The notes under the pieces: generated by a model | Database searches by the model: none | Seen by the model: only the letters and a program-made list of their open reading frames with translations | What the model was told of the DNA's origin: nothing | Translations under genes and position numbers: made by a program | In this document: positions 6,609 through 26,835 of the stretch, piece after piece | How positions within the stretch are numbered: the stretch's first letter is position 1 | Layout of the letters: every line of letters begins with the position of its first letter | Source: Bdellovibrionales bacterium | Lineage (GTDB): Bacteria > Pseudomonadota > Alphaproteobacteria > UBA9219 | Direction: 5' to 3' | Assembly: GCA_041649025.1 (NCBI GenBank) | Contig: JBAZNY010000002.1 | Span: 70,694-134,693 of the forward strand | Length of the DNA stretch: 64,000 nucleotides

Positions 6609-9278
6609 ATGACCAAAACGCTTTCCGACATCCGTTCGACCTTTCTTGATTACTTTGTGTCCCAAGGACATACGCGCATTGACTCCAGCCCTTTGGTTCC
6701 GCGCAACGATCCTACTTTGATGTTCACGAACGCGGGCATGGTTCAATTCAAAAACGTCTTCACAGGCGCGGAAAAACGCCCTTATACGAGAGCGACAACA
6801 GCCCAAAAATCGGTACGCGCGGGCGGTAAACATAATGATTTGGAAAATGTCGGCTATACGGCGCGGCATCATACTTTCTTTGAAATGCTTGGTAATTTCT
6901 CGTTTGGCGATTATTTCAAGCCTGAAGCGATTGACTTCGCATGGACTCTCGTCACAAAGCATTTTGGACTGAATAAAGACCGCCTGCTTGTCACGGTTTA
7001 TCATGAGGACGAACAAGCCGCCCAGTTATGGAAGAAAATTGCGGGATTTCCCGATTCCAAGATCATCCGTATCAAAACCGACGCCAACTTTTGGCGCATG
7101 GGCGATGTTGGCCCGTGCGGGCCATGTTCCGAGATATTTATCGATCAAGGCGACAAGCTTCAGGGAGGCCCGCCGGGAAGCAAAGACGAAGACGGCGACC
7201 GTTTCCTTGAATTCTGGAACCTTGTTTTTATGCAATCCGAGGAACTTCCGGGCGGCAAACGCATCAATCTGCCCAAGCCTTCCGTCGATACAGGCATGGG
7301 ATTGGAGCGCATCGCCGCCATTCTGCAAGGCGTCACGTCCAACTATGACATCGATTTGTTCCGCGCGATCATCGGCGGACTCGCAGATATGGTCGATATC
7401 GATCCCGAAGGCGCGCAGAAACCATCCTTCCGCGTCATTGCCGACCACTTGCGCGCGGTTTCCTTCCTTATCGCCGACGGCGTTTTGCCGAGCAACGAAG
7501 GACGCGGCTATGTCCTTCGCCGCATCATGCGCCGCGCCATGCGCCACGCCCATATGCTGGGCGCCAAAGATCCGCTGATTTACCGCCTCGTTCCCGAATT
7601 GGTCAAACAGATGGGAACGGCATATCCCGAACTGGTTTGCGCCCAAGACCTCGTTATGGAAACTTTGAAGCTCGAAGAAACCCGCTTTAAATCGATGCTT
7701 GACCGCGGGCTGAAGTTGCTCGATGACGAAACGAAAAAGATCAACAAAAACGGCCTGTTGCCGGGCGACGTTGCCTTCAAGCTTTATGATACTTTCGGCT
7801 TTCCCCTCGACCTGACGCAGGACGTTCTGCGCGGCCAAGGCCAGAAGGTGGATACGGCGGGGTTTGATGCCGCCATGGCCAAACAACGGGCAACCGCGCG
7901 CGCCGCGTGGGCGGGATCGGGCGACACAAAGACGGAAAAAATCTGGTTCGACTTGCGCGAGGAATTGGGCGCGACGGAGTTTCTGGGTTACAGCACCGAA
8001 GAAGCCGAAGGGAAGATACTCGCGCTCATTCAAAACGGCGCGCGCGTCAACGAGGCCAAGTCCGGATCGAACGTGGATGTCGTCGTCAACCAAACGCCGT
8101 TCTATGGCGAATCCGGCGGCCAGATGGGCGATACGGGAATTATCAAAACGGCGGGCGGCGCCGTCATTGCCGTTACGGATACGCAGAAAGAGGCCGACGG
8201 CGTCATCGTCCATCGCGGAAAAGTTCAAAGCGGCGTTGTCAAAACAGGCGACGACGCAACATTGGCGGTTGACGGCGACTATCGCGCGGCCTTGCGCGCC
8301 CATCATTCGGCCACGCATTTGCTGCACGAAGCCTTACGCCGCAAACTCGGCGAGCACGTCGCACAGAAGGGTTCGCTCGTCGCGCATAACCGCTTGCGCC
8401 TCGACTTTGCCCAAAACACTGCCATTCCTCCCGAAGTCTTGGCCAAGATCGAGGCCGAGGTGAATAAGCGCATTCGCATGAACACCGAAGTCGAAACGCG
8501 CCTTATGTCGCCTGAGGAAGCCATCGGCCACGGTGCACGCGCTCTCTTCGGCGAGAAATACGGAGATGAAGTCAGAGTTTTATTTATGGGCGGCCATGAA
8601 TTTGAAGACGCGCACGAGAAAAAGCATTTCTCGGTCGAGCTGTGCGGCGGCACGCATGCCAAGCGGACGGGCGATATCGGTTTGTTTAAGATTATCTCGG
8701 AAAGCGCAGTGTCGGCAGGCGTTCGGCGCATCGAAGCCGTCGTGGGCGCTGCAGCGCTGGCGTGGCTTGATGCGCAAAGCGGGTTGCTTAAAGCGGCCGC
8801 AGAGGCTCTTAAGGCATCGCCTTCGGACGTTCCGGCGCGCGTCGCGCAACTCGTCGACGACCGCAAAAAAATGGAGCGCGAAATTGCGGACTTACGCAAG
8901 CAAGCCGCGCTTGGCGGAGCCGCCGCAGGCGCGTGCGATGCGCCACGTTTTATCAACGGCATCAACTTCATCAGCCGCGTTTTAACGGACGTTCCCGCCA
9001 AAGACCTGAAGCCGATGGCTGACGAATTCAAGGTAAAGATAAAATCGGGCGTCGTCGCTTTGGCCTCAAGTTTTGAAGGCAAAGTGTCGCTGGTTGTCGC
9101 CGTCACGCCGGATTTGATTAAGCGTATCAGCGCCGTCGATCTCGTGAAAGCGGGAGCCGAACAACTCGGCGGCAAAGGGGGCGGAGGCCGCCCCGACATG
9201 GCTCAAGCCGGAGGCGCGGACGCCGCAGCTATGCCTAAGGCAATTGAGGCGATTGAGAAGGCGCTCGAGAAAAAATAA
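6609..9278 (+). CDS. alaS: alanine--tRNA ligase
   Basis: [67 protein letters not shown], the editing-domain motif HSATHLLH and a C-terminal GGGG segment. I prefer the ATG at 6609 to the upstream ORF start at 6540. Confidence 0.97.
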
Positions 9279-14372: not shown

Positions 14373-15185
14373 ATGCTTTTAGCCCTGGACGTCGGAAACA
14401 CGAATGTCGCGATGGGATTTTATCGCGGGCGCGGCAAGGACGCCAAGCTTGTCGCGGATTGGCGCCTCAGCACCATCAGAACCCGCACGGCGGACGAATA
14501 CGGCGCGGTCGTGCTTGGCTTTCTGATTTCAAGCGGCCTGAAATTGGAAGACGTCAAACACGTCGCCATTTCGAGCGTCGTGCCGCAGACCAACAGAGAC
14601 CTGACCGAATTCTCCCGCCGCTATTTTCATACCGAGCCGTTTTTTGCCACCGCCGATGCGGATTTGGGCATGAAGATACGCTACAACACGCCGCCCGCCG
14701 TCGGGGCCGACCGCATATGCAACGCAGTGGGCGCTTTCCATAAATACGGCGGCCCTTTGATCATCATCGACTATGGTACGGCGACAACGTTCTGCGCCAT
14801 CGCCAAAAACGGCGATTATCTGGGCGGCGCTATCGCCCCGGGCATCAACATTTCTATGAACGCTCTGTTTCAAAGCGCGGCAAGGCTTTATCCCGTCGAG
14901 TTCAAAACGCCGCCTGCGGCCATCGGCAAAAACACCATCCACTCCATGCAAAGCGGCGCGGTTTTCGGCTTTGCCGGACAAACGGATGCTTTGGTCAGAC
15001 GCATTCAAAAAGAGCTTGGCGGAAAAAAGGCCAAGGTCATTGCGGCCGGAGGGCTTGCCACGCTCATTAAGCACGAAAGCGAAACCATCGACGTCGTCGA
15101 TCAAATGATCACGCTGGAGGGCCTTCGGATTTTGTTCGAGCGGCACACGGAAAAAGCCGCCAAAAAGAAGCAGAAAAAGAAATAA
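14373..15185 (+). CDS. coaX: type III pantothenate kinase
   Basis: MLLALDVGNTN, IIIDYGTATTF and GGLA motifs are present. The ATG at 14373 is preferred over the TTG at 14367. The tail is lysine-rich. Confidence 0.9.
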   Translation: MLLALDVGNTNVAMGFYRGRGKDAKLVADWRLSTIRTRTADEYGAVVLGFLISSGLKLEDVKHVAISSVVPQTNRDLTEFSRRYFHTEPFFATADADLGMKIRYNTPPAVGADRICNAVGAFHKYGGPLIIIDYGTATTFCAIAKNGDYLGGAIAPGINISMNALFQSAARLYPVEFKTPPAAIGKNTIHSMQSGAVFGFAGQTDALVRRIQKELGGKKAKVIAAGGLATLIKHESETIDVVDQMITLEGLRILFERHTEKAAKKKQKKK

Positions 15186-15338
15186 CCCCCTTTAGATTAA
15201 GCCTTTTACAAGGCTCGACTCTGCCTTTAAGTCTGATATAAAGGCCGAACTCGATCTGCCCCCTGTTTGGATATAAGGAGCGAGCGCGTATTTTTTGCTT
15301 GATAGCCAAAAGCAGAAAATGTTTATTATCAATGGATT

Positions 15339-15432
15339 GGAGACGTGGCCGAGTGGCTGAAGGCGGCGGTTTGCTAAACCGTTATACGTTTGAAAAGATG
15401 TATCGAGGGTTCGAATCCCTCCGTCTCCGCCA
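15339..15432 (+). tRNA. tRNA-Ser (anticodon GCU)
   Basis: Acceptor ggagacg/cgtctcc, anticodon loop ttGCTaa, a long variable arm, T-arm gaggg-ttcgaat-ccctc and an encoded CCA. Confidence 0.9.
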
Positions 15433-15478
15433 ATTACCTTTTGTCCGACCCGGACACATGGGTAACAGAACGTACCGG

Positions 15479-16028
15479 CTACATAGGTGACACCCGCGAG
15501 CCAAACGGGTTGTCCAGGGGTTGCAAGATCTTCTCCTCCAAGTCGATATAACCTGGATCATAATCCATAAAACTGACAAGCCAAGTGCCTTCTTCGACCT
15601 CTTTGAGGCCGACAGCTTGTCCTGCGAACACGGTCGATAAATTGATTTTTTTTGCGGTGTAAACAGATCCGACCACAATGGGTAACGTTCGCGCTCAGGT
15701 CGTGGAGAGGATACACAAGTTCTGGAAGACCAGTATACACGCGTGGGGAAGGTTTATAAATCTCGGCCGGATACTTCATGCCCAAGGCTTCATGCGGACG
15801 GTCGTTGTTGTATTCTTCGATGAAGTCATCGAACTTGGCTTGCTGTTGGAAGATATTCTCTCCGGGTGGACGCGTAGCTTCTTTCTTCAGCGTCAGATGC
15901 ATGCGTTCATGGCGACCATTCTGTTGAGGATGTGCGCAAATACTGCTCATCCCGCGCTCGTGAGCCAACACAAAGCAAATATTTTTGGGCCGATCTCGCA
16001 ATTTCAGTGTTTGCGGCAATAATCTCAT
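15479..16028 (-). pseudogene. IS481-like DDE transposase remnant (N-terminally truncated and frameshifted)
   Basis: Two overlapping frames carry HPQQNGRHERMH (P-Q-x-N-G-x-x-E-R motif), NNDRPHEALGMKYP and the C-terminal LAGQAVGLKEVEEGTWLVSF. There is no N-terminal HTH or catalytic DD region. Confidence 0.75.
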
Positions 16029-16494
16029 GCGCAGATGTTAGCAGACGAAGCGTTTTGCCTTTTGCGGGCTGCTGGACAAGCGCGCTCGGTTCGAGCTTAA
16101 AAAAAGCTGCAAGGGCAGCAAGCGTTCCTGCGCGGCAACTATAGTTTGGATTGCTTTCCAGATTGCGAATAGTTTTTAAAGAAATTCCGGTTAGATCAGA
16201 TAGCCTTTCCTGCGAAATACCGCTGAGTTTGCGGTATCGCTTTATTTCAATGAAGCTTGGTTTGATTTTTCCGTCGTCTTTAATGACAAGCTCAGGAGCT
16301 AATTGATCTTGAGTATCTTTTTCGCGCTTATGTTGACGCGCAATGTCCGTAAGCATTGAAAAAGATTCTTCTTCACCAAAATCGCCGTTTTTAAAAACCT
16401 CCTTCTGGTTTTCAACACTGGCCCCTTGGTCCAACGGCTCTCGAAGCAAACTCCGGTTCCCCTGTACCATGACTTGCCACACCGCCCCGCGCAC
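15907..16494 (-). CDS. XRE-family HTH protein, apparently 3'-disrupted by the IS remnant (start uncertain)
   Basis: HTH segment LSGISQERLSDLTGISLKTIRNLESN. The ORF runs out of frame into the transposase fragment. It is paralogous in type to 28694-29344 and 30192-30857. Confidence 0.4.
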   Translation of the reverse strand: MRGAVWQVMVQGNRSLLREPLDQGASVENQKEVFKNGDFGEEESFSMLTDIARQHKREKDTQDQLAPELVIKDDGKIKPSFIEIKRYRKLSGISQERLSDLTGISLKTIRNLESNPNYSCRAGTLAALAAFFKLEPSALVQQPAKGKTLRLLTSAHEIIAANTEIARSAQKYLLCVGSRARDEQYLRTSSTEWSP

Positions 16495-16771
16495 AGATTA
16501 AAACCTTGCCAAAACCTTGCACCGCAGCATGCATACTCCATAACATACCTGCGTGTTTTTGGGAACGGGGGCAAACCAACCAAGAAAATCGCTATTTTCC
16601 ATGTATTCTTGATTGCTTCTTTACCTACTTCAAATAGGTCTATCGGTTAAAAACACAGCTTTCAGAAGAGAAAATCGGATGCACAGACATATCCAATAGC
16701 CGAACATCTTAATCTCCTACTAACTATAGGTTCGTCTTTTAAACTCCCATTTCAAGTTCTTTGCTCAGATT

Positions 16772-17245
16772 TTAATTCCACCCAATTTCACAGTATGGCT
16801 TCGGAGAAAGCGATCTGGCGATTCCTTCACGAACATAAGGAACCATGTTCTTGGGGAGCTTATTTACAGGGAAGAAGCGCAAGCCTCCGCATTTGTGAGG
16901 CTCCTTATTACAAATCTCGTTTTTCCATTTCTTGCAGACATAAAAGAGGTCGATTGACTCCCGATCAGGCGAAAAGCGATGAACAATACAAGAAAAGGCC
17001 ATGTCCTTCGGGCGAACAACAATGTCCGCTTCTTCAAAGGCTTCCCGAACCATCGCCGCCGTTGAGCTTTCTCCCCCATCAAGATGTCCCGCGATGACAC
17101 TATAGCTTCCGTCGCAGAAGCCTGTGTTCTGCCGAAGGAGAAGCAGAACCTCTTTTCCCTTAAGCAAAACCAAATGAACGGCAACAGGCATTTCAAAATG
17201 CTTAGACGGAGATTTCTTTTTGGCTTTGCCAACGATCTTACTCAT
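16772..17245 (-). CDS. Nudix hydrolase
   Basis: The Nudix box GHLDGGESSTAAMVREAFEEADI fits Gx5Ex7REuxEExxu. The start is taken at MSKIVGK, which makes an ATGA overlap with the upstream gene stop at 17242-17245. Confidence 0.8.
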   Translation of the reverse strand: MSKIVGKAKKKSPSKHFEMPVAVHLVLLKGKEVLLLLRQNTGFCDGSYSVIAGHLDGGESSTAAMVREAFEEADIVVRPKDMAFSCIVHRFSPDRESIDLFYVCKKWKNEICNKEPHKCGGLRFFPVNKLPKNMVPYVREGIARSLSPKPYCEIGWN

Positions 17246-18225
17246 GACTTCCCCCTGAACTTTTTCGCGAAGCTGTCCGTCGCTCTCACCGTCGCATCCA
17301 AAATGCCCGGATCGTTGTAAACGTGCGCAGCAACCTCCACCATGACCCATTGTGAAGAAGGCCAATTCTTGTGGAGTTCCCATGCCGTCGTCGCTGGGCA
17401 TACGGCATCGTAGCGTCCTTGAATAATTATGCCGGGAATGTTCTTCAGCTTTTTGGCCCCCTTAATAAGAGCACCTTCCTTCATAAATCCCGCGTTCAGG
17501 AAGTAATGGTTCTCAATAGCGGCGAAAGCTAACGCGAATTTATCTCTGGATTTATCGATAGTGTATTCCCCCTTCGGGATAAGGCACATCGCATCGCCTT
17601 CCCAGTCAGACCATGCCCGCGCAGCTTCAATTCTTGTTGCCCGCTTCTTTGAGGCCAATCTTTTCCGATAGGATTTCATAATGTCTTTTTGCTCGGCACG
17701 CGAAAGGATGCCGATAAAGCGATCCCAAGCTTCTGGAAACAGATAAGAAGCGCCCTCCTGATAAAACCACTTCAGCTCTTTCTTTCTGAGCATAAAGGTG
17801 CCTCTTAATATCAGACCGAGTACATTGCGCGGATACCGCTCAGCATAAGCCAAGGCAAGAGTGCTTCCCCATGAGCCTCCCAACATGATCCATCGATTAA
17901 TCCCCAAAAGATGGCGAAGCTTCTCAATATCGGCGACAAGATGCTGTGTTGTGTTTGCCTTCAAACATGTATGAGGGGTGCTGCGCCCACAGCCGCGTTG
18001 ATCAAATAGAATTATCCGATACTTCTTTGGATCAAATAAGCGCCGATGGTCTTTACCGCAGCCGCCGCCAGGCCCACCATGTATAAAGAGAGCTGGAATT
18101 CCGTTCGGATTGCCGCACGTCTCCCAATAAATCTTGTGTCCGTCCCCCACGGAAAGCATGCCGTGATCGTAGGGTTCGATGGAAGGAAAGAAGGAACGCA
18201 AAGATGGGGTTTTATGGGAATTCAT
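17242..18225 (-). CDS. prolyl-aminopeptidase-family (S33) alpha/beta hydrolase
   Basis: YWETCGNPNGIPALFIHGGPGGG, FDQRGCGRS and the nucleophile elbow GGSWGSTLALAYAERYP. The start is taken at MNSHKT, giving an ATGA overlap at 18222-18225. Confidence 0.8.
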   Translation of the reverse strand: MNSHKTPSLRSFFPSIEPYDHGMLSVGDGHKIYWETCGNPNGIPALFIHGGPGGGCGKDHRRLFDPKKYRIILFDQRGCGRSTPHTCLKANTTQHLVADIEKLRHLLGINRWIMLGGSWGSTLALAYAERYPRNVLGLILRGTFMLRKKELKWFYQEGASYLFPEAWDRFIGILSRAEQKDIMKSYRKRLASKKRATRIEAARAWSDWEGDAMCLIPKGEYTIDKSRDKFALAFAAIENHYFLNAGFMKEGALIKGAKKLKNIPGIIIQGRYDAVCPATTAWELHKNWPSSQWVMVEVAAHVYNDPGILDATVRATDSFAKKFRGKS

Positions 18226-18773
18226 GGCGATGGAGCATCCTTTTTTAAACCAATGTGAAAAGCGCGGGAGGGTTCTTTCATGAACTTTGAAACTTCTGGA
18301 TCGCTGTGACAACTATAACCGGCATCATATGTTTTTGCATGCCCCATGTTGCACCAGAAAGAAATCTGGCCTATCCGCATCATCGGATAAACCCTAAAGG
18401 GATGAGCTGACACGATTTCCAGCGTCCACTGGTGACAAGAGCCGGTGTGCCCAAGGTTTGCAGAAATCTGTAAAAACAAGCCGAGCCGCCCCAGAGAGCT
18501 GCGTCCGATTAAGGACATTGCGTATTCTTTGCTGCCCAGAGTCTCATGGGTATGTCCCAGATAGACCGTGTGAGGCTCTAGGACATAGCCCTCCTCAGGA
18601 ATTTTTATCTCTTTGAATCCATAAAGGCGTTCTTCGTCATATTCGGGAACAAGAAGCTTCGGCCCAAGCCTATAGTTATAGCTGTTGGGATTGATTTGAT
18701 CGTCGTTGAACGGAACAATCGTAATATCGCCCGCATCGACCATCTTCTTAATTTCTGTTCCCGTCAAAATCAT
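18222..18773 (-). CDS. dCTP deaminase/dUTPase-fold protein, divergent copy 1
   Basis: MILTGTEI, NPNSYNYRLG, GRSSLGRLGLFL and WTLEI. The Glu equivalent to E. coli Dcd E138 is retained, and DPGW is replaced by HTGS. Confidence 0.7.
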   Translation of the reverse strand: MILTGTEIKKMVDAGDITIVPFNDDQINPNSYNYRLGPKLLVPEYDEERLYGFKEIKIPEEGYVLEPHTVYLGHTHETLGSKEYAMSLIGRSSLGRLGLFLQISANLGHTGSCHQWTLEIVSAHPFRVYPMMRIGQISFWCNMGHAKTYDAGYSCHSDPEVSKFMKEPSRAFHIGLKKDAPSP

Positions 18774-18778
18774 ACTAG

Positions 18779-19870
18779 TTACGCAAAATCCACGGCAAGT
18801 TTTGTAAGTCTCTTATTAAGTATCGCCCTGTCAGGCCCCATTTTTTCTTTCAAATCTTGATAAGAGGAAACGTATGCCGCGATTAAGCCGCCAGCGCTTT
18901 TAGATGCCGTTCCGAAGCAGACCTTTTCCATCTGTTTTGATGCGCGCTCAAGATCGGCTGGCGTTGACATCGTGCGAGGCAATAGCTCGGCGATGCCCTG
19001 AAGATAACTGCGCAAAACCCGTCCGCGCCCGTCCGCAACGGGTTTTATTCCCGATCTCATAATGAAAGTGCTTGCAGCAACGGCATCCGCGATTTTCAAT
19101 TCGTCGTTGGTTTCAGTCGGCAGAAATTCTGCGATAGGAGCTGCATGAATGGGGGTCGGCAGCCCCGTCATTCTGCTGATTGCCGTCTCCACCCCGAAAG
19201 CCATTTCCACCCCAAGCTTTCGTTCACCAGCTTCGATGATGATAATATTTCCAATATCCCCGTACTCCTCGGAATATGGCCCTTTGATTGCAATGTTGCA
19301 GTTTCGCCCCGTTATGCCGTCAATGCCAAATTTATGCGTGTAGTAAACGGGTTCTTTCGTGTCGAACACCAAATACTGGTCGAGCCCAAGGTTTTTCCAG
19401 AAATCAACCAGATCAACGTCCGAGCTGGCGATATGAATCTTGATGGTGTTTGGGTTCAAACACAGCCGTTCCGTCAAAAACTGCCAGAAAAGTTTGGATA
19501 CTTTTTCGACATCATCATATTGCGACAGCGTCCCTGTGCTGAGAAACATGGATGACCAGTTGGGCACATAATTATTGTCTTGAATTCGCCTGGAGTTTTG
19601 CGTCCGCAAACAATCTTGAACCATAAACAGGCCGTTAGGAGGAATGCTCCCGCTAAGAAGAACCGGCTTCAAAGTGCTTATCGTTGAGCCGGTAAAAAGA
19701 ACAGAAGCATCATCCTTAGGAACTAATTTTCCGGCAGGAGCTTGTGAAAACCCATTCTCCAGAAAGAATGACTGAAAATGTGTCGAGAACTCGTTTCTCA
19801 ATCTGCGCAATATCGTTTTGTCGTCGTAATCCTCTATCGCGCGCGTTAGAAGGGAATTATAGTTTGTCAT
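18779..19870 (-). CDS. stand-alone AlaRS catalytic-core-like protein (class IIc aaRS paralogue)
   Basis: 363 aa, collinear by eye with the AlaRS N-terminal domain: FQSFFLENGF.. (vs [10 protein letters not shown]), LVPKDDASVLFTGSTI (vs [16 protein letters not shown]), QDCLRTQN (vs QKSVRAGG), and VEMAFGVETAISRMTG (vs [16 protein letters not shown] in the alaS of this window). No tRNA-recognition, editing or C-Ala domains. Confidence 0.6.
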   Translation of the reverse strand: MTNYNSLLTRAIEDYDDKTILRRLRNEFSTHFQSFFLENGFSQAPAGKLVPKDDASVLFTGSTISTLKPVLLSGSIPPNGLFMVQDCLRTQNSRRIQDNNYVPNWSSMFLSTGTLSQYDDVEKVSKLFWQFLTERLCLNPNTIKIHIASSDVDLVDFWKNLGLDQYLVFDTKEPVYYTHKFGIDGITGRNCNIAIKGPYSEEYGDIGNIIIIEAGERKLGVEMAFGVETAISRMTGLPTPIHAAPIAEFLPTETNDELKIADAVAASTFIMRSGIKPVADGRGRVLRSYLQGIAELLPRTMSTPADLERASKQMEKVCFGTASKSAGGLIAAYVSSYQDLKEKMGPDRAILNKRLTKLAVDFA

Positions 19871-19873
19871 AAT

Positions 19874-20419
19874 TTATGGCTCCGGCTTTTGTTGTGCACT
19901 CTTCTTAAAATCCCTAAATACTTCGGAAGACCTTGGCCCATTTGCCCCCTGATATTTGCCTTTGTAGAGAACGATCTCTCCCTTCGGAACCCAGAAGGAC
20001 ACTTGCCCGACGAGCATTCCTGGATAAAGCCGAATGGGCAGCGTTGCGTAGAGCTGAAACGACAGATTTCCGTGCATACCGAGATCGACGAGATCGGCTG
20101 TTACATGAACAAACAGCCCAAGCCGAGCGATGCTGGAACGCGCGTGAATAATTGGGACAAAGTAGTCGCTTCCAACTTTTTCCTGTGTATGTCCCACAAG
20201 AAAATCCCCCTTCTTCATCAAGATTCCCTTTTCATCTGCGATGATCTCTCGGAACTCCGGCGGATTTCGGGGATCGATAACTGGCGATGTGTACTGGATG
20301 AACTTATTGCCCAGCCGCAGATCATATGAATTTGTCGTCGCCCGTTCAGGATCGAAGGGGCAAATTTCAATCTTTCCCAAGTTCCACTGATTGATAATTT
20401 CTTTTCCGGTCAAAATCAT
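19874..20419 (-). CDS. dCTP deaminase-like protein, copy 2 (catalytic Glu replaced by Gln)
   Basis: MILTGKEI, TNSYDLRLGNKF, ARSSIARLGLFVHVTADLVDLG and RLYPGMLVGQVSF are close to canonical Dcd. The VLEF position reads SFQL. Confidence 0.7.
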   Translation of the reverse strand: MILTGKEIINQWNLGKIEICPFDPERATTNSYDLRLGNKFIQYTSPVIDPRNPPEFREIIADEKGILMKKGDFLVGHTQEKVGSDYFVPIIHARSSIARLGLFVHVTADLVDLGMHGNLSFQLYATLPIRLYPGMLVGQVSFWVPKGEIVLYKGKYQGANGPRSSEVFRDFKKSAQQKPEP

Positions 20420-20493
20420 CGTCGTCTCTATCGCTTGTTAAAATATACCCCGCAGTCGTTTGAATAACCGCAACTGCGGGGCCATTATTATAT

Positions 20494-21594
20494 TTATGGC
20501 GCAGGGCCTTCTTTTCTCTTCTTTTCCCATTGGAGCTTTTTCAGCCAAACGGGCTCATTCTGACGCGGCTTAAAGGAAACGCACAAAGGAACAAACTCAC
20601 CAAAATGATTCCCCTTGTTCTGATTGGTGCACGGAGTGTCCTTGGTCATGTCGTGGCCAAGAAGTTCATTCGTCGGCGTGTTGTTCCAATAGATTTTTTT
20701 GCTATCGTAAAAACCGATGCCGTAAGGAGTCCCAATCATGAGAGAGCAAAGACGGAGCATCCCATTCGGAAAAGCTAGAATACGATCGAACTGCTTGGCG
20801 GAGCAGTATCCATAATATTCCTTGTTTCTCTCAAATTCCTCCTTGACCGTAACGCACTGGGGCATCCGAACATCGATGCCCTTCTCTGTCTCTTTGTACT
20901 TTTGCACTTCTGCAAAGGCCTCCATGTATTCCTTGACGCTGGTATTGATATTATTTGACCAAACGTCGCGCGGAATTCCGCCCTTGAACAAATCATGCAT
21001 GTTGAGCGTCTTGACCCCAAGACCCTTCATAAATTCGATCATGTTGATAAGAGCGAGCTGTCCGTTTTCGGCTTGTGCAGTAAGCCCTTTGTGCACGCAG
21101 CTTGTTACGTGAACGTTGTAGCCCTTTTCGATGGCTTTCTTGATGTTTGAGGTACAGTTTTTGAAGCTACCTTTGCCACGGATGGCATCGTTCATTTCCT
21201 CCGTATAGCCGTCCAGGCTGAACGTAATTTCATCAAGCTCGCGGAAATAGGGATTGTCGAGCAAGGACGGATTGAACATCCCGTTCGTATCGATGCGAAC
21301 GTGCGAATACCCCATTTGCTTCGCTTCATGAATGAGTTCCGGCAGCTTCTTGTATAAAGTCGGCTCTCCTCCCATAAACGTCATCTTAATTGCGCCAAGT
21401 TCGCGCATATTTTTCATGAGATTTAACGCGTCGCCATATTCCATTTCCTTTTTCTGAAGCTGGAATGTGAGTTCAGGCTTGTACAAGCACTGCACGCACC
21501 TCAAATTGCAGGTGTCAGTGAGATACATAAAAACCTGTCCAATTTTATTGTTGAACGCCTGATAAAATTGTTCGTCAATTTCCATTTCGCTCAT
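20494..21594 (-). CDS. radical SAM enzyme with a Cys-rich C-terminal region
   Basis: CNLRCVQC (CX3CX2C) near the N-terminus, then MTFMGGEPTLY, VRIDTNGMF and ITFSLDG. There are additional C-terminal cysteines, possibly an auxiliary cluster domain. Confidence 0.75.
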   Translation of the reverse strand: MSEMEIDEQFYQAFNNKIGQVFMYLTDTCNLRCVQCLYKPELTFQLQKKEMEYGDALNLMKNMRELGAIKMTFMGGEPTLYKKLPELIHEAKQMGYSHVRIDTNGMFNPSLLDNPYFRELDEITFSLDGYTEEMNDAIRGKGSFKNCTSNIKKAIEKGYNVHVTSCVHKGLTAQAENGQLALINMIEFMKGLGVKTLNMHDLFKGGIPRDVWSNNINTSVKEYMEAFAEVQKYKETEKGIDVRMPQCVTVKEEFERNKEYYGYCSAKQFDRILAFPNGMLRLCSLMIGTPYGIGFYDSKKIYWNNTPTNELLGHDMTKDTPCTNQNKGNHFGEFVPLCVSFKPRQNEPVWLKKLQWEKKRKEGPAP

Positions 21595-21721
21595 ATTCGC
21601 CCCCTAAAAATTTATTTCCAAAATGAGAAGCGCTCATTTTGTGTTTGAAAATTAGTGGGTGCCGGTTTTACCCGCATCCCCCGTTCGGGGGTTTTTGATG
21701 TCTCTTCGATAAAAAGAGGTC

Positions 21722-23830
21722 TTAGTTTTTATCTAACGACGAAGTGTTAGATGACGAGTGCGATGCCGGCCTTGTCGGATCGCAGGAAGGCGCGCGTGCT
21801 TTGATTGCTTTCAGGTCGCCAACATCATCGAAGAAACGTTGAAGCCAAATAAGCATCCCTATTCTATTTTCTCTGATGCTTACGTTGTCATCGTTGATGC
21901 GAACGTTTTCAAAAAACTCCGTAACAGTTGTCTCGGTCTCGCTTAAGCGTTGTAGCTTTGCTCCGTAGTCCAGCACAGGAAATTGCAGCGTCATCTTCGC
22001 CAACATCCCGCACATGCGCACATCATAATCCGAAGCCAAGAGCTTGCTGCTTGTGGCATACTCTTTGGTAGCCCAGTCCTTCGGCAATATCTTGCGAACG
22101 CGCGTAGCTACCGCCAATAATTTTGCCCCTTCCGGAGTTTTCATAAACTCCCGAATGGCAGTGCCGCGCTCAAACAAACGGCTTACGTTGTTGGTCTTGT
22201 CGTTATTTAATACCGATGAAATCACATCTTCGGGCAACCCGCGTTCCAGGAACGTTGACCTGATCCGATCCCGCATAAAATCGTCAATCCCTTCAGGAAA
22301 CTTTGCACTGTAAAGTTCCGAAGAAAGAGCAATACCTTCGGAAAGATCATAATCAATATTGTTTTCCAAAAGAATTCTGACCATCCCCAATGCCGTCCGC
22401 CTTAATGAAAATGGGTCGCGGCTGGAGCTAGGTATTTCTCCGATGCTGAAAAAACCGGTCAATGTGTCGATCTTATCTGCCAGCGCTATGGTTGCCGCCG
22501 TCTTCTCTTTCGGGCAAGCATCGCTTGGGCCGAGAGGCGCATAATGGCTTCTTATTGCTTCGGCAACGATTGGGGTTTCCCCCTGCTGCAAAGCACATCT
22601 ATATCCGACAATCCCTTGCAATTCTGGAAATTCATAAACAAGCGATGTGGTGAGATCGGCTTTTGATAAATTGGCCGCATGCTGAACTAAAGAAACGTCA
22701 GCCCCTAGCTTCCGCGCAATTGCCTTTGACAAAGCGGCAACGCGCTGCGTTTTGTCATACATGCTGCCCAATTTGTTATGGAACTTGAGCGTTTGAAGAT
22801 TCTGGACTCTATCGATAAGCGGAACGCTGACATCCTTTGACCAGAAGAAAAGTGCGTCCGACAAACGCGCAGAAATTACTTTCTCATTGCCGACAACGAC
22901 CGTTTTTCCTCCATCCTCTGTTACAGTTCCTGCGGCAAATATAAAGTTGGAAGAAAGGCCTCCATTCTCCTTCTTTAACGAGAAATACTTTTGGTTTGCC
23001 TTCATTGAGGTTGTGATAACCTCCGGAGGAACGTTCAAGAATCTTTCTTCAAACTGCCCAAGCAAAACAATGGGCCATTCTGTCAATCCGGCAACTTCCT
23101 CCAGAAGATCATTATCTTCATTAAGATGCAGTCCCTGTGCTTCTGCTATCCTTTGCGCATCGTTATAAATAATCGATTTGCGTTCGTTTCTATCTATTAC
23201 AACATGTCTCAATGCCAATTCATTTTTGTATTGTGCAAAATCTGTAATACAAAACGACTCTGGATTTAAGAACCTGTGTCCCACAGATTGATTTGTGTAT
23301 TCGAGATTAGTGCCGTTTCCGAGGTCAAAAGCTCCTTCTACGGCCTTGCCGTCAAAAACAACCGAGATGCTTTTCAGAGGACGCGCCCAACGGAACGTAG
23401 TTGATCCCCAACGCATGGATTTCTTCCATGACATCTCCCTTATCGACTTATCGATAACGACTGCCAAAACCTGCTTTGTTTCTCGTTCCTGGACTACCTT
23501 GTTCAAAACATAACATTCCCCTTTTGAAGTGTTCTTTGTTGACAGGTTTGTCTTTTGAGACCCCGTTGCTTTCAAAAAAGCGGAGATAATTTTCTCATTG
23601 CTATTTGTTTTTGGCCCTAATCTTTCAATATTTCTCGCTGGCAAGACGGTTGGAATTCCTTCGATTGCCACAACAAGCCGCCGTGGAGTCGATCCCCGAT
23701 GTAACTCTCCCATGGGGACGCCCGCATCCGAAAGTTCTTTACACAAAATGCTGGCAAATTGTTCTTCCGCTGCTGCTTGCACGTTTGCAGGAAGTTCTTC
23801 CGATAAAAGCTCAACGAGTAATTCCGACAT
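21722..23830 (-). CDS. glyS: glycine--tRNA ligase beta subunit
   Basis: MSELLVELLSEELPAN at the N-terminus, about 700 aa, directly downstream of glyQ (18 bp gap). The start is taken at the internal Met of the ORF. Confidence 0.9.
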   Translation of the reverse strand: MSELLVELLSEELPANVQAAAEEQFASILCKELSDAGVPMGELHRGSTPRRLVVAIEGIPTVLPARNIERLGPKTNSNEKIISAFLKATGSQKTNLSTKNTSKGECYVLNKVVQERETKQVLAVVIDKSIREMSWKKSMRWGSTTFRWARPLKSISVVFDGKAVEGAFDLGNGTNLEYTNQSVGHRFLNPESFCITDFAQYKNELALRHVVIDRNERKSIIYNDAQRIAEAQGLHLNEDNDLLEEVAGLTEWPIVLLGQFEERFLNVPPEVITTSMKANQKYFSLKKENGGLSSNFIFAAGTVTEDGGKTVVVGNEKVISARLSDALFFWSKDVSVPLIDRVQNLQTLKFHNKLGSMYDKTQRVAALSKAIARKLGADVSLVQHAANLSKADLTTSLVYEFPELQGIVGYRCALQQGETPIVAEAIRSHYAPLGPSDACPKEKTAATIALADKIDTLTGFFSIGEIPSSSRDPFSLRRTALGMVRILLENNIDYDLSEGIALSSELYSAKFPEGIDDFMRDRIRSTFLERGLPEDVISSVLNNDKTNNVSRLFERGTAIREFMKTPEGAKLLAVATRVRKILPKDWATKEYATSSKLLASDYDVRMCGMLAKMTLQFPVLDYGAKLQRLSETETTVTEFFENVRINDDNVSIRENRIGMLIWLQRFFDDVGDLKAIKARAPSCDPTRPASHSSSNTSSLDKN

Positions 23831-23848
23831 AATTGTTCTCAACCAAAG

Positions 23849-24715
23849 TTATGGATTTGCTTTAAGAAGCGTCTCGCAACATGCCTTCGCCAAATTTCTC
23901 ACGCGCCCTATATATGCTTGTCTTTCCTGTGGACTGATGACGCCGCGCGCATCAAGCGAATTAAACGTGTTTGCGGCCAAAACACATTGCTCATAGGCCG
24001 GAATTGGAAGTCTCTTCTTTAACAATTCCTCACATGTTTCTTCAAAATCATTGAAGTGCAAGAACAGTTTTTGAGGATTTGAGTGTTCAAAATTATAGGC
24101 CGACATCTGTTTCTCGTTTTCGAGATAAACGTCGCCATATGTCAGGCCTGAATTGTTGTAAGGAAGATCGTAAACGTTGTTCACGTCTAGTACATACATA
24201 GCAAGACGCTCTAACCCATAGGTAAGTTCAAGCGTCACGGGGGAACACTCCAAACCGCCCATTTGCTGAAAATATGTGAACTGCGAGATTTCCATCCCGT
24301 CACACCAGACTTCCCAACCAAGGCCGCTGGCTCCTAAGGTTGGGCTTTCCCAGTCATCCTCAACAAATCGGATATCGTGCAACGCTGGCGTTATCCCGAT
24401 CTCCTTGATGCTGTCCAAATACAATTCCTGGGAATTAGCCGGAGATGGCTTTATCACGACCTGGAATTGATGGTGCATTTGCAGCCGGTTGGGATTCTCT
24501 CCGTATCTGCCGTCTGTCGGACGCCTTGCCTGCTGCACATACGCAGCTTTCCATGGCTTCCCTCCGAGCACCCTAAATACCGTTGCGGGATGATATGTGC
24601 CCGCGCCCATTTGCATATCGTAGGGCTGAAGAAGTGCGCACCCCTTCGATCCCCAGTATTTTTGCAAACCAAGAATAATGTCTTGGTAGCAGCGCAGCTT
24701 TTTGGAATCCTGCAT
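23849..24715 (-). CDS. glyQ: glycine--tRNA ligase alpha subunit
   Basis: [60 protein letters not shown], and [22 protein letters not shown]. Confidence 0.93.
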
Positions 24716-24807
24716 TGCAATTCGTCCTAAAGTTGTTTTTTAATGAATGTGTCTGAATTGATCTGAGGCCACATCCCCCTTTTGGGGGTTTCTGTGCCAA
24801 AAACGCT

Positions 24808-26835
24808 TCAAAGCGCGCTAGTTAATGACAGCAGAGGAAACACCGGTTTTTTCAAGCGAGCCCTTAGTTCATTGAAGTGTTTTCCAGCAAGATCAAACCC
24901 CCCTTTGCTCAGCATCGCGGAACTAATAAAATAGCCATCCCCTTTAACATTCTGCTCATCAACTGCTTTAGCGATGTCATCATGCGTAAGGAGACCAGCA
25001 ACACAGATATTTCCGCCAAAGTGTTGGTTAGACGCGGCAATTATGCGTAAATTACGAACTTTTTCATCAGGACGAAGCAGCTCCGTTGCTGCGTCTAAAA
25101 AAGGCTTCATGATAGAGCTTGTGACAAGAACGGGTTGTTGCAATTCATACTGCCGTTGGTGCGCAGCAATACGCCGGAAAATTGAGAAATCCACATCGTC
25201 ATTCATGAGGATTCCCCATGTTCCGACCTTCTTATCAACCAGCGTTCGCGCCCGCTTCAGTGACTTATAGGCAGAAAGCTCCACATCTCTTTGCATTCCC
25301 CTCGGGTCTCGCACAGCGACGACCATCTTGTTGGCTTGAAGATCATTTAATAGCTGAAGTGCTTCGGTTCGTGACCGTGGAGTTTTCCCATTAACTTCGA
25401 TGATTGTTGATCCCGCTTCGATGCCAGCTTGATCGGCGTTTGATCCTTCAATGACATCTTCTATCGTTGGCGTAAGCCCAGTTCGATTTAGCAATCCTAC
25501 CGTTACAATTATGGCTGTTTTGACAGATGGGCGTAGAGCGGTGACAAATGAATCAATCCGTGCCAATTCTTCTGGTGACAAAAGCAGTTTTGGATTGTGA
25601 TGAAGCGTGCCCGCCGGAAGAGCAACTCGTATATATGACGTCGGCTCATACTTGTCCGCATAACGAATTGTATGCTCGATGTCCTCTAATGGTATCCAAC
25701 TCGTGGCTGCAACAAGAGAAACATCAAACTGAATTCCCAAATCGTGCATTAGCGGTAATGATTGAATAGCAACTTCATGTTGTTCAGGTCTGCCCCCAGG
25801 CATAAGTATTTTTCTGTAGGCAGGGTCCGCGCTGTTCAGCGAGACTTGGAACAGGACTTGCTGGCGAAGCTGATCGTCTTCTGCAATTGCCTTAAGAAGC
25901 TTCTGTTTTAGGTTTCCGCCATGTGTCAGGATGGGGACTTGCGCCTTAGGATCAGCGGCGCATATAAGCTTCAGAACCTTTAGAAATTCAGGATGTTCCG
26001 TTGGCTCCCAATCCATCAGCGCATAACGTAACGGCGGATGCCCAAAACGAGTATTTGCGTCGTAGGAATTTAGAGCGTCCTTAATGTCATCAAGCGATCT
26101 CGCCCATCCGCGCGGGTATCTGACCGTCGAAAAACCTCGATCAACATAACAGAACCGGCATCCCTGATTGCAGTTATTCCATACGAAAGGAATTGCTGCA
26201 TTTTGAGCCGACCCAATAGGAACTTGAAGGGCTTGGGCATCAACGACTTTTGCCACACCTGGTTCAGAAAAATCAAATGTATTCAAAAGCCACTTCCGTA
26301 CCACAGCCTCAAGCGTATCGTTATTATGAACACTCGGTAATGGAATTGCCGGAGAAGGAAATGTTGCCCCGCCAAGAATATGTTGTACCGCCGCTACGCG
26401 CCCATTTAGCACACCCCCTTCATTGAGAAGTTCCACATCGTGCAATAGGGCAAAAGAAATATCTCCCCAATTGATTTGGGCTTTACCTGGATTAGATGCA
26501 GCTCCTGCTTCGAAAGAGCCTTTTCCTAAACGCATATAGGCATCGCATAACAATACTATGGGAGATTCAAACCCAAAAAGTTGACCCTGAACGCTTTGCA
26601 TTTCTTGTTGAGGGATAGGTTTGCTGAGATCGTTAGTACTATTTGAAACTCGAATACGATCAGGAACTAGGATATTGCCGTGAGCATCAAAAAACTGCGA
26701 AAACAGTATGACTGCTTGTGCCAAACCAAGAAAACGAGATTCTTTCGACCCAGCATCGTCAAGAAGACCATATTTCTGAATTTCGATAGCCTTTATCGTT
26801 GAAGAAAATTGTTTTGGCAGCGCGTTATTTACCAT
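24808..26835 (-). CDS. radical SAM / PDZ / DUF512-like multidomain protein with an unassigned roughly 230 aa N-terminal domain
   Basis: CNQGCRFC (CX3CX2C) at about residue 232. A PDZ-like segment IEDVIEGSNADQAGIEAGSTIIEVNGK. The C-terminal FGGNICVAGLLTHDDI resembles DUF512. Confidence 0.6.
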   Translation of the reverse strand: MVNNALPKQFSSTIKAIEIQKYGLLDDAGSKESRFLGLAQAVILFSQFFDAHGNILVPDRIRVSNSTNDLSKPIPQQEMQSVQGQLFGFESPIVLLCDAYMRLGKGSFEAGAASNPGKAQINWGDISFALLHDVELLNEGGVLNGRVAAVQHILGGATFPSPAIPLPSVHNNDTLEAVVRKWLLNTFDFSEPGVAKVVDAQALQVPIGSAQNAAIPFVWNNCNQGCRFCYVDRGFSTVRYPRGWARSLDDIKDALNSYDANTRFGHPPLRYALMDWEPTEHPEFLKVLKLICAADPKAQVPILTHGGNLKQKLLKAIAEDDQLRQQVLFQVSLNSADPAYRKILMPGGRPEQHEVAIQSLPLMHDLGIQFDVSLVAATSWIPLEDIEHTIRYADKYEPTSYIRVALPAGTLHHNPKLLLSPEELARIDSFVTALRPSVKTAIIVTVGLLNRTGLTPTIEDVIEGSNADQAGIEAGSTIIEVNGKTPRSRTEALQLLNDLQANKMVVAVRDPRGMQRDVELSAYKSLKRARTLVDKKVGTWGILMNDDVDFSIFRRIAAHQRQYELQQPVLVTSSIMKPFLDAATELLRPDEKVRNLRIIAASNQHFGGNICVAGLLTHDDIAKAVDEQNVKGDGYFISSAMLSKGGFDLAGKHFNELRARLKKPVFPLLSLTSAL

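Follow-up and report, generated by a model that had tools for sequence, protein, structure and literature searches.

The window analysed here is a 64,000-nucleotide stretch of a Bdellovibrionales genome (assembly GCA_041649025.1, contig JBAZNY010000002.1, positions 70,694 to 134,693), and its feature of interest is AlaL, a stand-alone protein of 363 amino acids (aa) that is related to alanyl-tRNA synthetase (AlaRS) and is encoded on the minus strand from an ATG start (18779..19870). AlaL is the third gene of a six-gene operon, all on the minus strand, that runs from a radical S-adenosylmethionine (SAM) enzyme (rSAM) through DcdA, AlaL, DcdB, and a prolyl aminopeptidase (Pip) to a Nudix hydrolase. 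The spacers are 74 nucleotides (nt) between rSAM and DcdA, 3 nt between DcdA and AlaL, and 5 nt between AlaL and DcdB, and the last two junctions are ATGA start/stop overlaps. An earlier reading of this DNA made from its letters alone (here the sequence-only reading) had placed AlaL between two Dcd-like genes, and both neighbors match PF22769, DcdA with 116 bits and DcdB with 112 bits. The window also codes for a canonical alaS (6609..9278, plus strand), an 889-aa housekeeping enzyme that serves as the reference for comparison.

Homology, fold and active site of AlaL

AlaL is genuinely homologous to the AlaRS aminoacylation domain, although highly diverged from it, and both fold and homology bear out its description in the sequence-only reading as a truncated, AlaRS-derived class II paralogue collinear with the N-terminal domain of the window alaS. 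Pfam family PF01411 (tRNA-synt_2c) matches residues 30-172 over profile positions 4-151 with 46.6 bits (E=2.4e-12; gathering cut-off, 30.3 bits), a significant relationship to the AlaRS catalytic domain. BLASTP against the window alaS gives a single collinear alignment of residues 26-291 with residues 6-308 (21% identity, E=1e-8), in which every one of the blocks previously aligned by eye is reproduced, and class II motifs 1 and 2 are recognizable. The AlphaFold2 model, computed with 40 homologues as input, has a mean predicted local distance difference test (pLDDT) score of 95.4, and its best 19 Foldseek matches in the PDB are all AlaRS catalytic fragments (E values of 3e-14 to 3e-12, template modeling [TM] scores of 0.60-0.73), with GlyRS alpha, AsnA, and others ranking far below. 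The alaS equivalog model TIGR00344 scores 38.2 bits and its cut-off of 457 is not reached; AlaL is not a tRNA synthetase, and the database record for the exact protein reads 'alanine--tRNA ligase-related protein'.

The protein is truncated, although less severely than the loss of the entire tRNA-recognition domain, along with the editing and C-Ala domains, that was first proposed. The distal half of the tRNA-recognition domain, the editing domain, and the C-Ala domain, all part of AlaRS, are absent from AlaL, but AlaL retains the first half of the tRNA-recognition domain, which is helical: by the model and the alignments, residues ~255-362 fold into a bundle of five helices that matches AlaRS residues ~254-358 and contains a counterpart of the AlaRS motif 'GRGYVLRR', here 'GRGRVLRSY'. 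AlaL stops after this helical subdomain, at the equivalent of AlaRS residue ~360-375.

Stand-alone AlaRS-like proteins of this kind form a large family with a distinctive active-site signature and recurring partners. A profile search of 1.84 billion representatives yields 389 representatives at E≤1e-30, each standing for a cluster, so that the family amounts to hundreds of clusters at 50% identity from many phyla. The distribution is patchy and crosses phyla, and the 53 genome loci collected with an AlaL gene include Serratia, Ewingella, Paenibacillus, Clostridium, actinobacteria, a Calothrix plasmid, many candidate phyla radiation (CPR) bacteria, and a Methanosarcinales metagenome-assembled genome (MAG). 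A tblastn search of a plasmid collection returned canonical alaS only, and AlaL as plasmid or phage cargo was rejected on this result and on the phage search described below. Nearly all of the best 150 of the 389 relatives are 250-420 aa long; four are longer (498-627 aa), and two of these are fusions, one with an HD phosphohydrolase (P0119, 549 aa) and one with a SAM methyltransferase (P0168, 627 aa). Long open reading frames (ORFs) at L018:5245-7323 and L040:7962-9611 suggest that there are more AlaL fusions.

Residue counts come from an alignment of 180 family representatives with a mean identity of 22%, in which some 20 positions of the active site vary little or not at all; such conservation at this level of identity argues for catalysis by the family. 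Conserved positions include R89, W105, F109, R189/N190/N192, D205, N208, E222, and G226 (AlaL numbering). Those retained from AlaRS are the motif-2 Arg (R89, in 176/180), the acid that precedes the Asn strand (D205), N208 (174/180, with Gln never found there), and the motif-3 Gly (G226). The family-specific changes include Val214 of AlaRS to Ile, replacement of the FFEML segment by W-x3-F, and a new GRNxN motif in place of GPCGPC. Position 105 is aromatic in 173 representatives (Trp in 125, Tyr in 36, and Phe in 12) and position 109 is Phe in 175, while the motif-2 loop Glu of FFEML gives way to a variable residue at position 110. The Asn/Asp pair that reads G3:U70 in AlaRS is absent from the family.

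Asp235 and Gly237 of the AlaRS alanine pocket are likewise not kept. The alignment to the window alaS reads Glu222 and Ala224 at these positions, within the block VEMAFGVETAISRMTG, the same Asp-to-Glu and Gly-to-Ala changes that had been seen by eye. Across the family the first position is Glu in 169, Gln in 7, and Asp in 3 representatives, and the second is Ala in 122 and Gly in 50. These pocket substitutions support a small amino acid as the probable substrate, in keeping with the earlier proposal. The sequence-only reading fares less well on ATP. Class II adenylate-forming enzymes bind ATP via the motif-3 Arg, which in the window alaS (GxGxER) aligns with Thr229 of AlaL, and this position is Arg in none of the 180 representatives (Thr in 123, Val in 18, Asn in 11, Ala in 7, Ser in 7, and Met in 4). 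The class II ATP-binding residues are thus retained at motif 2 and lost at motif 3, and ATP-dependent adenylation by AlaL is doubtful. To judge from these residues, the pattern is one that would keep a sub-site for an aminoacyl-phosphate-like group and a stacked base and remove the residue for the outer phosphates of ATP.

Operon partners and related loci

DcdA (19874..20419, minus strand) and DcdB (18222..18773, minus strand) share the PF22769 fold and the RSSxxRLG motif with dCTP deaminases of the Dcd and Dcd-Dut types but differ from them in being a fixed paralogue pair. In an alignment to PDB entries 4xjc and 2qxx, 'SFQLY' of DcdA lies opposite 'TLELF', placing a Gln where DcdB keeps the Glu ('WTLEIV') that we take to be catalytic (E138 in E. 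coli Dcd). DcdA scores 108 bits against TIGR02274 (cut-off, 92.8), whereas DcdB, with 64.7 bits, is under the cut-off. The two are distinct orthologous groups that are always together next to AlaL, and the split of Gln in DcdA and Glu in DcdB holds in 13/13 pairs adjoining AlaL, whatever the gene order (A-AlaL-B, A-B-AlaL, B-A-AlaL, or AlaL-B-A). They probably form a hetero-oligomer in which DcdB alone is catalytic. More than 1,100 clusters (at 90% identity) match DcdA and are mostly annotated 'dCTP deaminase'; the 120 listed homologues (P0197-P0316) are 57-100% identical to it, mostly 57-65%, with Gln in every example inspected, and the annotation is probably wrong for this Gln-type group.

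The flanking of AlaL by Dcd genes is true of the window, but a Dcd pair is present in only about a quarter of AlaL loci and also occurs without AlaL; the pair as an obligate AlaL partner was rejected, and the functional unit is the six-gene operon. In loci without AlaL the pair, usually with a methyltransferase, lies beside other divergent class II paralogues, namely, a LysRS-like protein (255 bits; cut-off, 468), an AspRS-like protein (126 bits; cut-off, 353), and the PheS-like SrmL, and the SrmL loci also have an S66 peptidase. The PheS-like protein matches NF051887, 'PheS-related mystery ligase SrmL', with 398 bits (L054:8460-9575 and L056:8809-9924, both minus strand) and adjoins a cassette of S66 peptidase, Orn-DAP decarboxylase, methyltransferase, DcdB, DcdA, and LysRS-like genes. 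A literature search found no published account of SrmL or of a cluster combining Dcd with a protein resembling an aminoacyl-tRNA synthetase (aaRS).

The first gene of the operon, rSAM (20494..21594, minus strand), has a CxxxCxxC motif at residues 29-36 and matches PF04055 with 69.6 bits. Its NCBIfam scores are 80 bits for MoaA (cut-off, 284) and 57.3 bits for viperin (NF038283; cut-off, 180), its PDB matches are to MoaA, cytosylglucuronate decarboxylase, and viperins (E values of 1e-10 to 1e-6), and the PADLOC pVip models match it with 67 bits over the rSAM core alone. Identification as MoaA, viperin, or BlsE was rejected, with all matches far under the family cut-offs; these nearest relatives act on nucleotides. 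The 74-nt spacer that follows contains a terminator-like hairpin with an 8-bp stem (20450..20473, minus strand) and then TATATTTT, which could be an internal terminator or attenuator of the operon.

At the other end of the operon, Pip (17242..18225, minus strand) is a prolyl aminopeptidase of 327 aa from the ATG at 18225, with 397 bits against TIGR01249 (cut-off, 260) and 382 bits against PDB 1azw ('PROLINE IMINOPEPTIDASE'), presumably the Xanthomonas citri enzyme. Its start overlaps the DcdB stop, and the start of the Nudix hydrolase (16772..17245, minus strand; 157 aa from the ATG at 17245; PF00293, 48 bits) overlaps the Pip stop. The same six genes are found in the same order in two other MAGs, L001 (AlaL 61% identical) and L002 (55%), with rSAM orthologues at the same operon position, the same order and overlap of DcdB and pip, and the Nudix gene kept downstream of pip. 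The genes flanking the six differ among the window, L001, and L002, and the operon therefore behaves as a unit. Related rSAM proteins occur in L023-type cassettes.

Beyond the Nudix end of the operon lie a tRNA-Ser(GCT) gene (15339..15432, plus strand), an integrase-core (rve_3) fragment (15558..16028, minus strand), and a gene for an HTH_3 helix-turn-helix (HTH) protein (15907..16494, minus strand), which together suggest an island border at a tRNA gene. An Rfam search across 15000-25500 (E≤0.1) found no regulatory RNA or leader and returned only the tRNA-Ser and one overlapping match below threshold, 'Plastid-psbl-rps4' at 15374-15429 on the opposite (minus) strand (50.5 bits; gathering threshold, 68), which is almost certainly spurious.

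On the rSAM side the operon adjoins the genes for a tetrameric-type GlyRS, glyQ (23849..24715, minus strand) and glyS (21722..23842, minus strand), which end 127 nt upstream of rSAM on the same strand. GlyRS, rather than AlaRS, is the recurrent aaRS neighbor of the family. Nine loci from several phyla (L009, L017, L027, L028, L038, L039, L043, L045, and L047) have a bona fide dimeric GlyRS (606-615 bits; cut-off, 312) no more than 5 kb from AlaL, and four of them (L027, L039, L043, and L045) have two GlyRS paralogues that are 63-80% identical; a fused GlyQS is beside the AlaL cassette in L041. Three GlyRS architectures (glyQ plus glyS, fused GlyQS, and dimeric) thus adjoin AlaL, and GlyRS is the sole housekeeping translation gene among the recurrent neighbor clusters; a full-length AlaRS adjacent to AlaL was found in none of the loci analyzed. 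The GlyRS neighbors, together with the tighter pocket (Ile for Val and Ala for Gly), point to glycine as an amino acid for AlaL that is at least as likely as alanine.

Other partners were counted within 5 kb of AlaL in 50 loci, with neighbors assigned by reference queries. The most frequent are S66 peptidases (36/50), SAM methyltransferases (29/50), and AsnRS/AsnA-like cores without an anticodon domain (27/50), followed by the Dcd pair and HD phosphohydrolases (11/50 each) and by radical-SAM enzymes, HIT proteins, and metallophosphoesterases (6/50 each). Further neighbors are HAD phosphatases, ATP-grasp amino-acid ligases, and exporters of the major facilitator superfamily (MFS) or ATP-binding cassette (ABC) type. 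The family neighborhood is thus consistently one of amino-acid and nucleotide functions. The S66 partner matches the PDB entries 'MccF-like BA_5613' (365 bits), MccF (148 bits), and LdcA (~75 bits) and by these scores is MccF-like, not LdcA-like. In the clade nearest the window, Dcd-Dcd-AlaL occurs in three more contexts, each with other additions: a methyltransferase, metallophosphoesterase, and ABC exporter; an S66 peptidase only; and a uridine-kinase-like gene, pantothenate genes, and an MFS exporter.

AcmF and the proposed aminoacyl transfer

The closest characterized analogue of AlaL, compared by published characters, is AcmF of ascamycin biosynthesis in Streptomyces sp. 80H647/JCM9888. 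AcmF is an AlaRS-like, aminoacyl-tRNA-dependent transferase of 370 aa that is without most ATP and Ala-activation residues and carries D232E, with E232 essential, and N219Q. It holds a nucleoside sulfamate in the old adenylate site by W100/F104 stacking and by R93, E216, and Q219. The donor is Ala-tRNA made by the cluster's own AlaRS (AcmD), and Gly and Ser are also transferred. A neighbor, AcmE, resembles a Xanthomonas aminopeptidase that dealanylates ascamycin, and two genome papers that cite Sudo et al. (1996) give ascamycin dealanylation as a proline iminopeptidase activity.

AlaL and AcmF are both truncated AlaRS-like proteins of similar length (363 and 370 aa) with Glu for the amino-group-holding Asp of AlaRS (E222 in AlaL, E232 in AcmF) and Trp and Phe at i/i+4 (W105/F109 and W100/F104, with stacking a putative role in AlaL). 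Both keep the motif-2 Arg, have lost the ATP-activation residues, and are without the G3:U70-reading pair, and both have as gene neighbors a hydrolase related to the ascamycin-dealanylating proline iminopeptidase and a complete aaRS, which for AlaL is only a candidate supplier of aminoacyl-tRNA. The remaining partners differ: those of AcmF are sulfamate-building enzymes and a dedicated AlaRS, whereas AlaL is accompanied by the Dcd pair, rSAM, and Nudix proteins, with GlyRS in related loci. Full-text literature searches gave no description of the AlaL family or of a Dcd-linked aaRS paralogue, which agrees with the sequence-only reading that such an enzyme is undescribed, but that reading did not cite AcmF, a direct precedent. 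AcmF is the sole AlaRS-catalytic-domain paralogue with a characterized non-translational catalytic role found in the literature searched, and since it gives a working precedent, the AlaL finding is not categorically new.

From the homology, fold, residue pattern, operon, and conserved neighborhoods we infer the donor, acceptor, product, and partner roles as follows. The operon most likely builds or handles a conjugate of a small amino acid (Gly or Ala) with a modified, probably pyrimidine, nucleotide, and the acceptor is very probably nucleotide-like and not a tRNA, as had been proposed from the sequence. AlaL itself may carry out an AcmF-like transfer in which aminoacyl-tRNA gives up its Gly or Ala to a tailored pyrimidine nucleotide bound in the former ATP pocket, a reading to which we assign a probability of roughly 0.45. 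The pocket would no longer take a triphosphate and would hold instead the acceptor, a nucleoside or nucleotide, with W105 and F109 stacking on either side of it and with R89, N208, and the family-specific R189/N190/N192 as its anchors. E222, the equivalent of AlaRS Asp235, would hold the alpha-amino group of the incoming aminoacyl moiety, which would be supplied by aminoacyl-tRNA, plausibly Gly-tRNA(Gly) from a neighboring GlyRS, and would pass to an amine or hydroxyl of the acceptor. In this scheme rSAM, the DcdA/DcdB pair, and the Nudix hydrolase would prepare the nucleotide, and Pip would take the aminoacyl group off again, for activation or self-protection, a place that MccF-like S66 or HIT enzymes would fill in related cassettes.

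Several points weigh against AcmF-like transfer. The relatedness of AcmF to the AlaL family is one of shared characters: no named Streptomyces member is among the matches listed for the family profile search, and searching a word-indexed protein database with a profile of 150 members gave no matches beyond the family itself and two AlaRS-like proteins. AcmF also has Gln (N219Q) where AlaL keeps Asn208, and its motif-2 loop is about nine residues shorter (R93 to F104, compared with R89 to F109 in AlaL). The distal tRNA-recognition half and the G3:U70-reading pair are absent from the family, so tRNA binding by AlaL is only putative, and ATP use could in principle be restored if the invariant R189 stood in for the lost motif-3 Arg. 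No GlyRS was found near AlaL in L001 and L002, and for this reason the link to the glyQS genes in the window may be chance. The apparent enrichment of GlyRS is given as raw counts, many of the loci are MAG contigs with mechanically called ORFs and single-linkage clustering, and Pip is a common housekeeping gene.

The same residues can be read in favor of ATP use. AlaL could be an ATP-dependent adenylate-forming ligase that converts a small amino acid to aminoacyl-AMP and hands it to a non-tRNA acceptor, for example, a nucleotide made by the Dcd and rSAM proteins, which we regard as possible but on balance unlikely. SerRS-like amino acid:carrier-protein ligases, AsnA, EpmA/PoxA, and HisZ are stand-alone class II cores freed from tRNA charging, of which AsnA, PoxA/EpmA, and the SerRS-like ligases work in this adenylating manner, and an AsnA-like adenylating core is a frequent neighbor of AlaL (the 27 loci above). 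In size AlaL matches N-terminal fragments of E. coli AlaRS that reportedly, in work by Jasin, Regan and Schimmel in 1983, make Ala-AMP and cannot charge tRNA; it is without the distal tRNA-recognition half, it keeps R89 almost throughout the family along with D205, N208, and E222, and a replacement phosphate site could be built from the invariant R189/N190/N192. The class II ligase paralogues, however, have a complete ATP site with the motif-3 Arg, the very residue that no AlaL representative has, and the motif-2 loop Glu is replaced by variable residues at position 110. AcmF, with the same size and the same Asp-to-Glu change, is reported to be without the ATP and Ala-activation residues and needs the Ala-tRNA made by AcmD, and the recurring complete GlyRS genes would be superfluous to a ligase using a free amino acid, unless they are resistance genes. 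No carrier-protein domain was found in Pfam scans of the window operon or the sampled neighbor genes.

Loss of the motif-3 Arg would also fit a pseudo-enzyme, and the position of AlaL between two Dcd paralogues with 3- to 5-nt spacers recalls HisZ, which regulates HisG; a reading of AlaL as a subunit without catalysis that senses a ligand and regulates the Dcd enzymes is nonetheless very unlikely, given that about three-quarters of AlaL loci have no Dcd gene, that the order of AlaL relative to the pair varies, and that the active site is so highly conserved. An anti-phage module, in which a viperin-like rSAM and the Dcd proteins act on the nucleotide pool by depleting or poisoning it and AlaL is a sensor or effector, for example, acting on tRNA, would account for the patchy, cross-phylum distribution, the weak pVip match, the tRNA gene, integrase fragment, and HTH gene flanking the operon, and the prophage and transposase genes that adjoin the L061 cassette. 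This is improbable, since the viperin score of rSAM is less than a third of its cut-off, PADLOC has no match for AlaL, the Dcd proteins, or most partners, and the exporters, ATP-grasp ligases, and pantothenate genes of related cassettes look like a pathway that makes a compound for export. A tblastn search of 50,697 unannotated phage records likewise found no close AlaL homologue, with five weak matches (22-29% identity, E values of 1e-7 to 3e-6) that are about as weak as the alaS matches in the plasmid search. A known defense system was rejected as an identification of the operon, PADLOC being blank for AlaL and Dcd and the pVip similarity of rSAM being at the level of the core only. The frequent S66 peptidases and GlyRS genes and the many CPR carriers could instead point to the cell wall, with AlaL modifying a nucleotide-linked precursor, for example, by tRNA-dependent glycylation of UDP-MurNAc-peptide, and an S66 LD-carboxypeptidase and an AsnA-like amidating enzyme acting on the same stem; Gly-tRNA does donate to peptidoglycan cross-bridges in Gram-positive bacteria. 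But the S66 partners are of the MccF type and much less similar to LdcA, an S66 gene is missing from the window operon, the cassettes contain no Mur or Fem genes, and the Dcd pair, rSAM, HIT, methyltransferase, and exporters would have no place, making a cell-wall role highly improbable.

Related cassettes and their possible products

MccF and the HIT-type MccH are known enzymes that cleave aminoacyl-nucleotide antibiotics, and the AlaL cassettes resemble microcin C systems in their MccF-like S66 peptidases or HIT proteins, methyltransferases, and exporters. They differ in that an aaRS paralogue stands in the place of MccB, and the window operon has Pip rather than an S66 or HIT enzyme. No ThiF/MccB-type adenylyltransferase or precursor peptide gene was found in the window operon or the sampled cassettes, among which very short ORFs were not searched systematically.

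More tentatively than for AlaL itself, AcmF-like transfer can be extended to a widespread, undescribed class of modular cassettes, from CPR bacteria to Serratia and Paenibacillus, in which a divergent class II aaRS paralogue might take the amino acid of an aminoacyl-tRNA and attach it to a tailored pyrimidine nucleotide, with aminoacyl-nucleotide antimetabolites that mimic aminoacyl-adenylates as possible products. The paralogue would be AlaRS-like in the window and LysRS-like, AspRS-like, AsnA-like, or the PheS-like SrmL elsewhere, and the nucleotide would be made by an HD enzyme or a hetero-oligomer of DcdA(Gln) with DcdB(Glu), together with a methyltransferase and, in some cassettes, an rSAM. 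The AlaRS-like branch would yield a glycyl-adenylate mimic aimed at GlyRS, with self-protection by a duplicated GlyRS, by MccF-like or HIT enzymes, or by Pip. If true, microcin-C-like warheads would here be reached by a tRNA-dependent route without MccB; if the chemistry is right, the cassettes would offer aminoacyl-nucleotide antimetabolites that are so far untapped, along with the enzymes to make them, and the abundant 'dCTP deaminase' paralogues without the catalytic glutamate would have a function.

The hypothesis can be tested directly in culturable carriers, which include Serratia plymuthica, Ewingella americana, and Paenibacillus. The cluster of Serratia plymuthica NBRC 102599 (L004:6012-13480) consists of a methyltransferase, DcdA, DcdB, AlaL, a metallophosphoesterase, two ATP-grasp L-amino-acid ligases, and an MFS exporter, and clusters of this type are also found in L005, L006, L010, and L016, the carriers being culturable enterobacteria and Paenibacillus. 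This compact cluster resembles a peptidyl-nucleotide pathway and lends itself to genetics. A longer cassette, L062:4239-14619, has genes for a uridine-kinase-like protein, a methyltransferase, Dcd-Dcd-AlaL, a metallophosphoesterase, PanB, PanC, PanD, a PurD-like ATP-grasp protein, an MFS exporter, and CoaBC, which hints at a pantothenate- or CoA-like nucleotide product.

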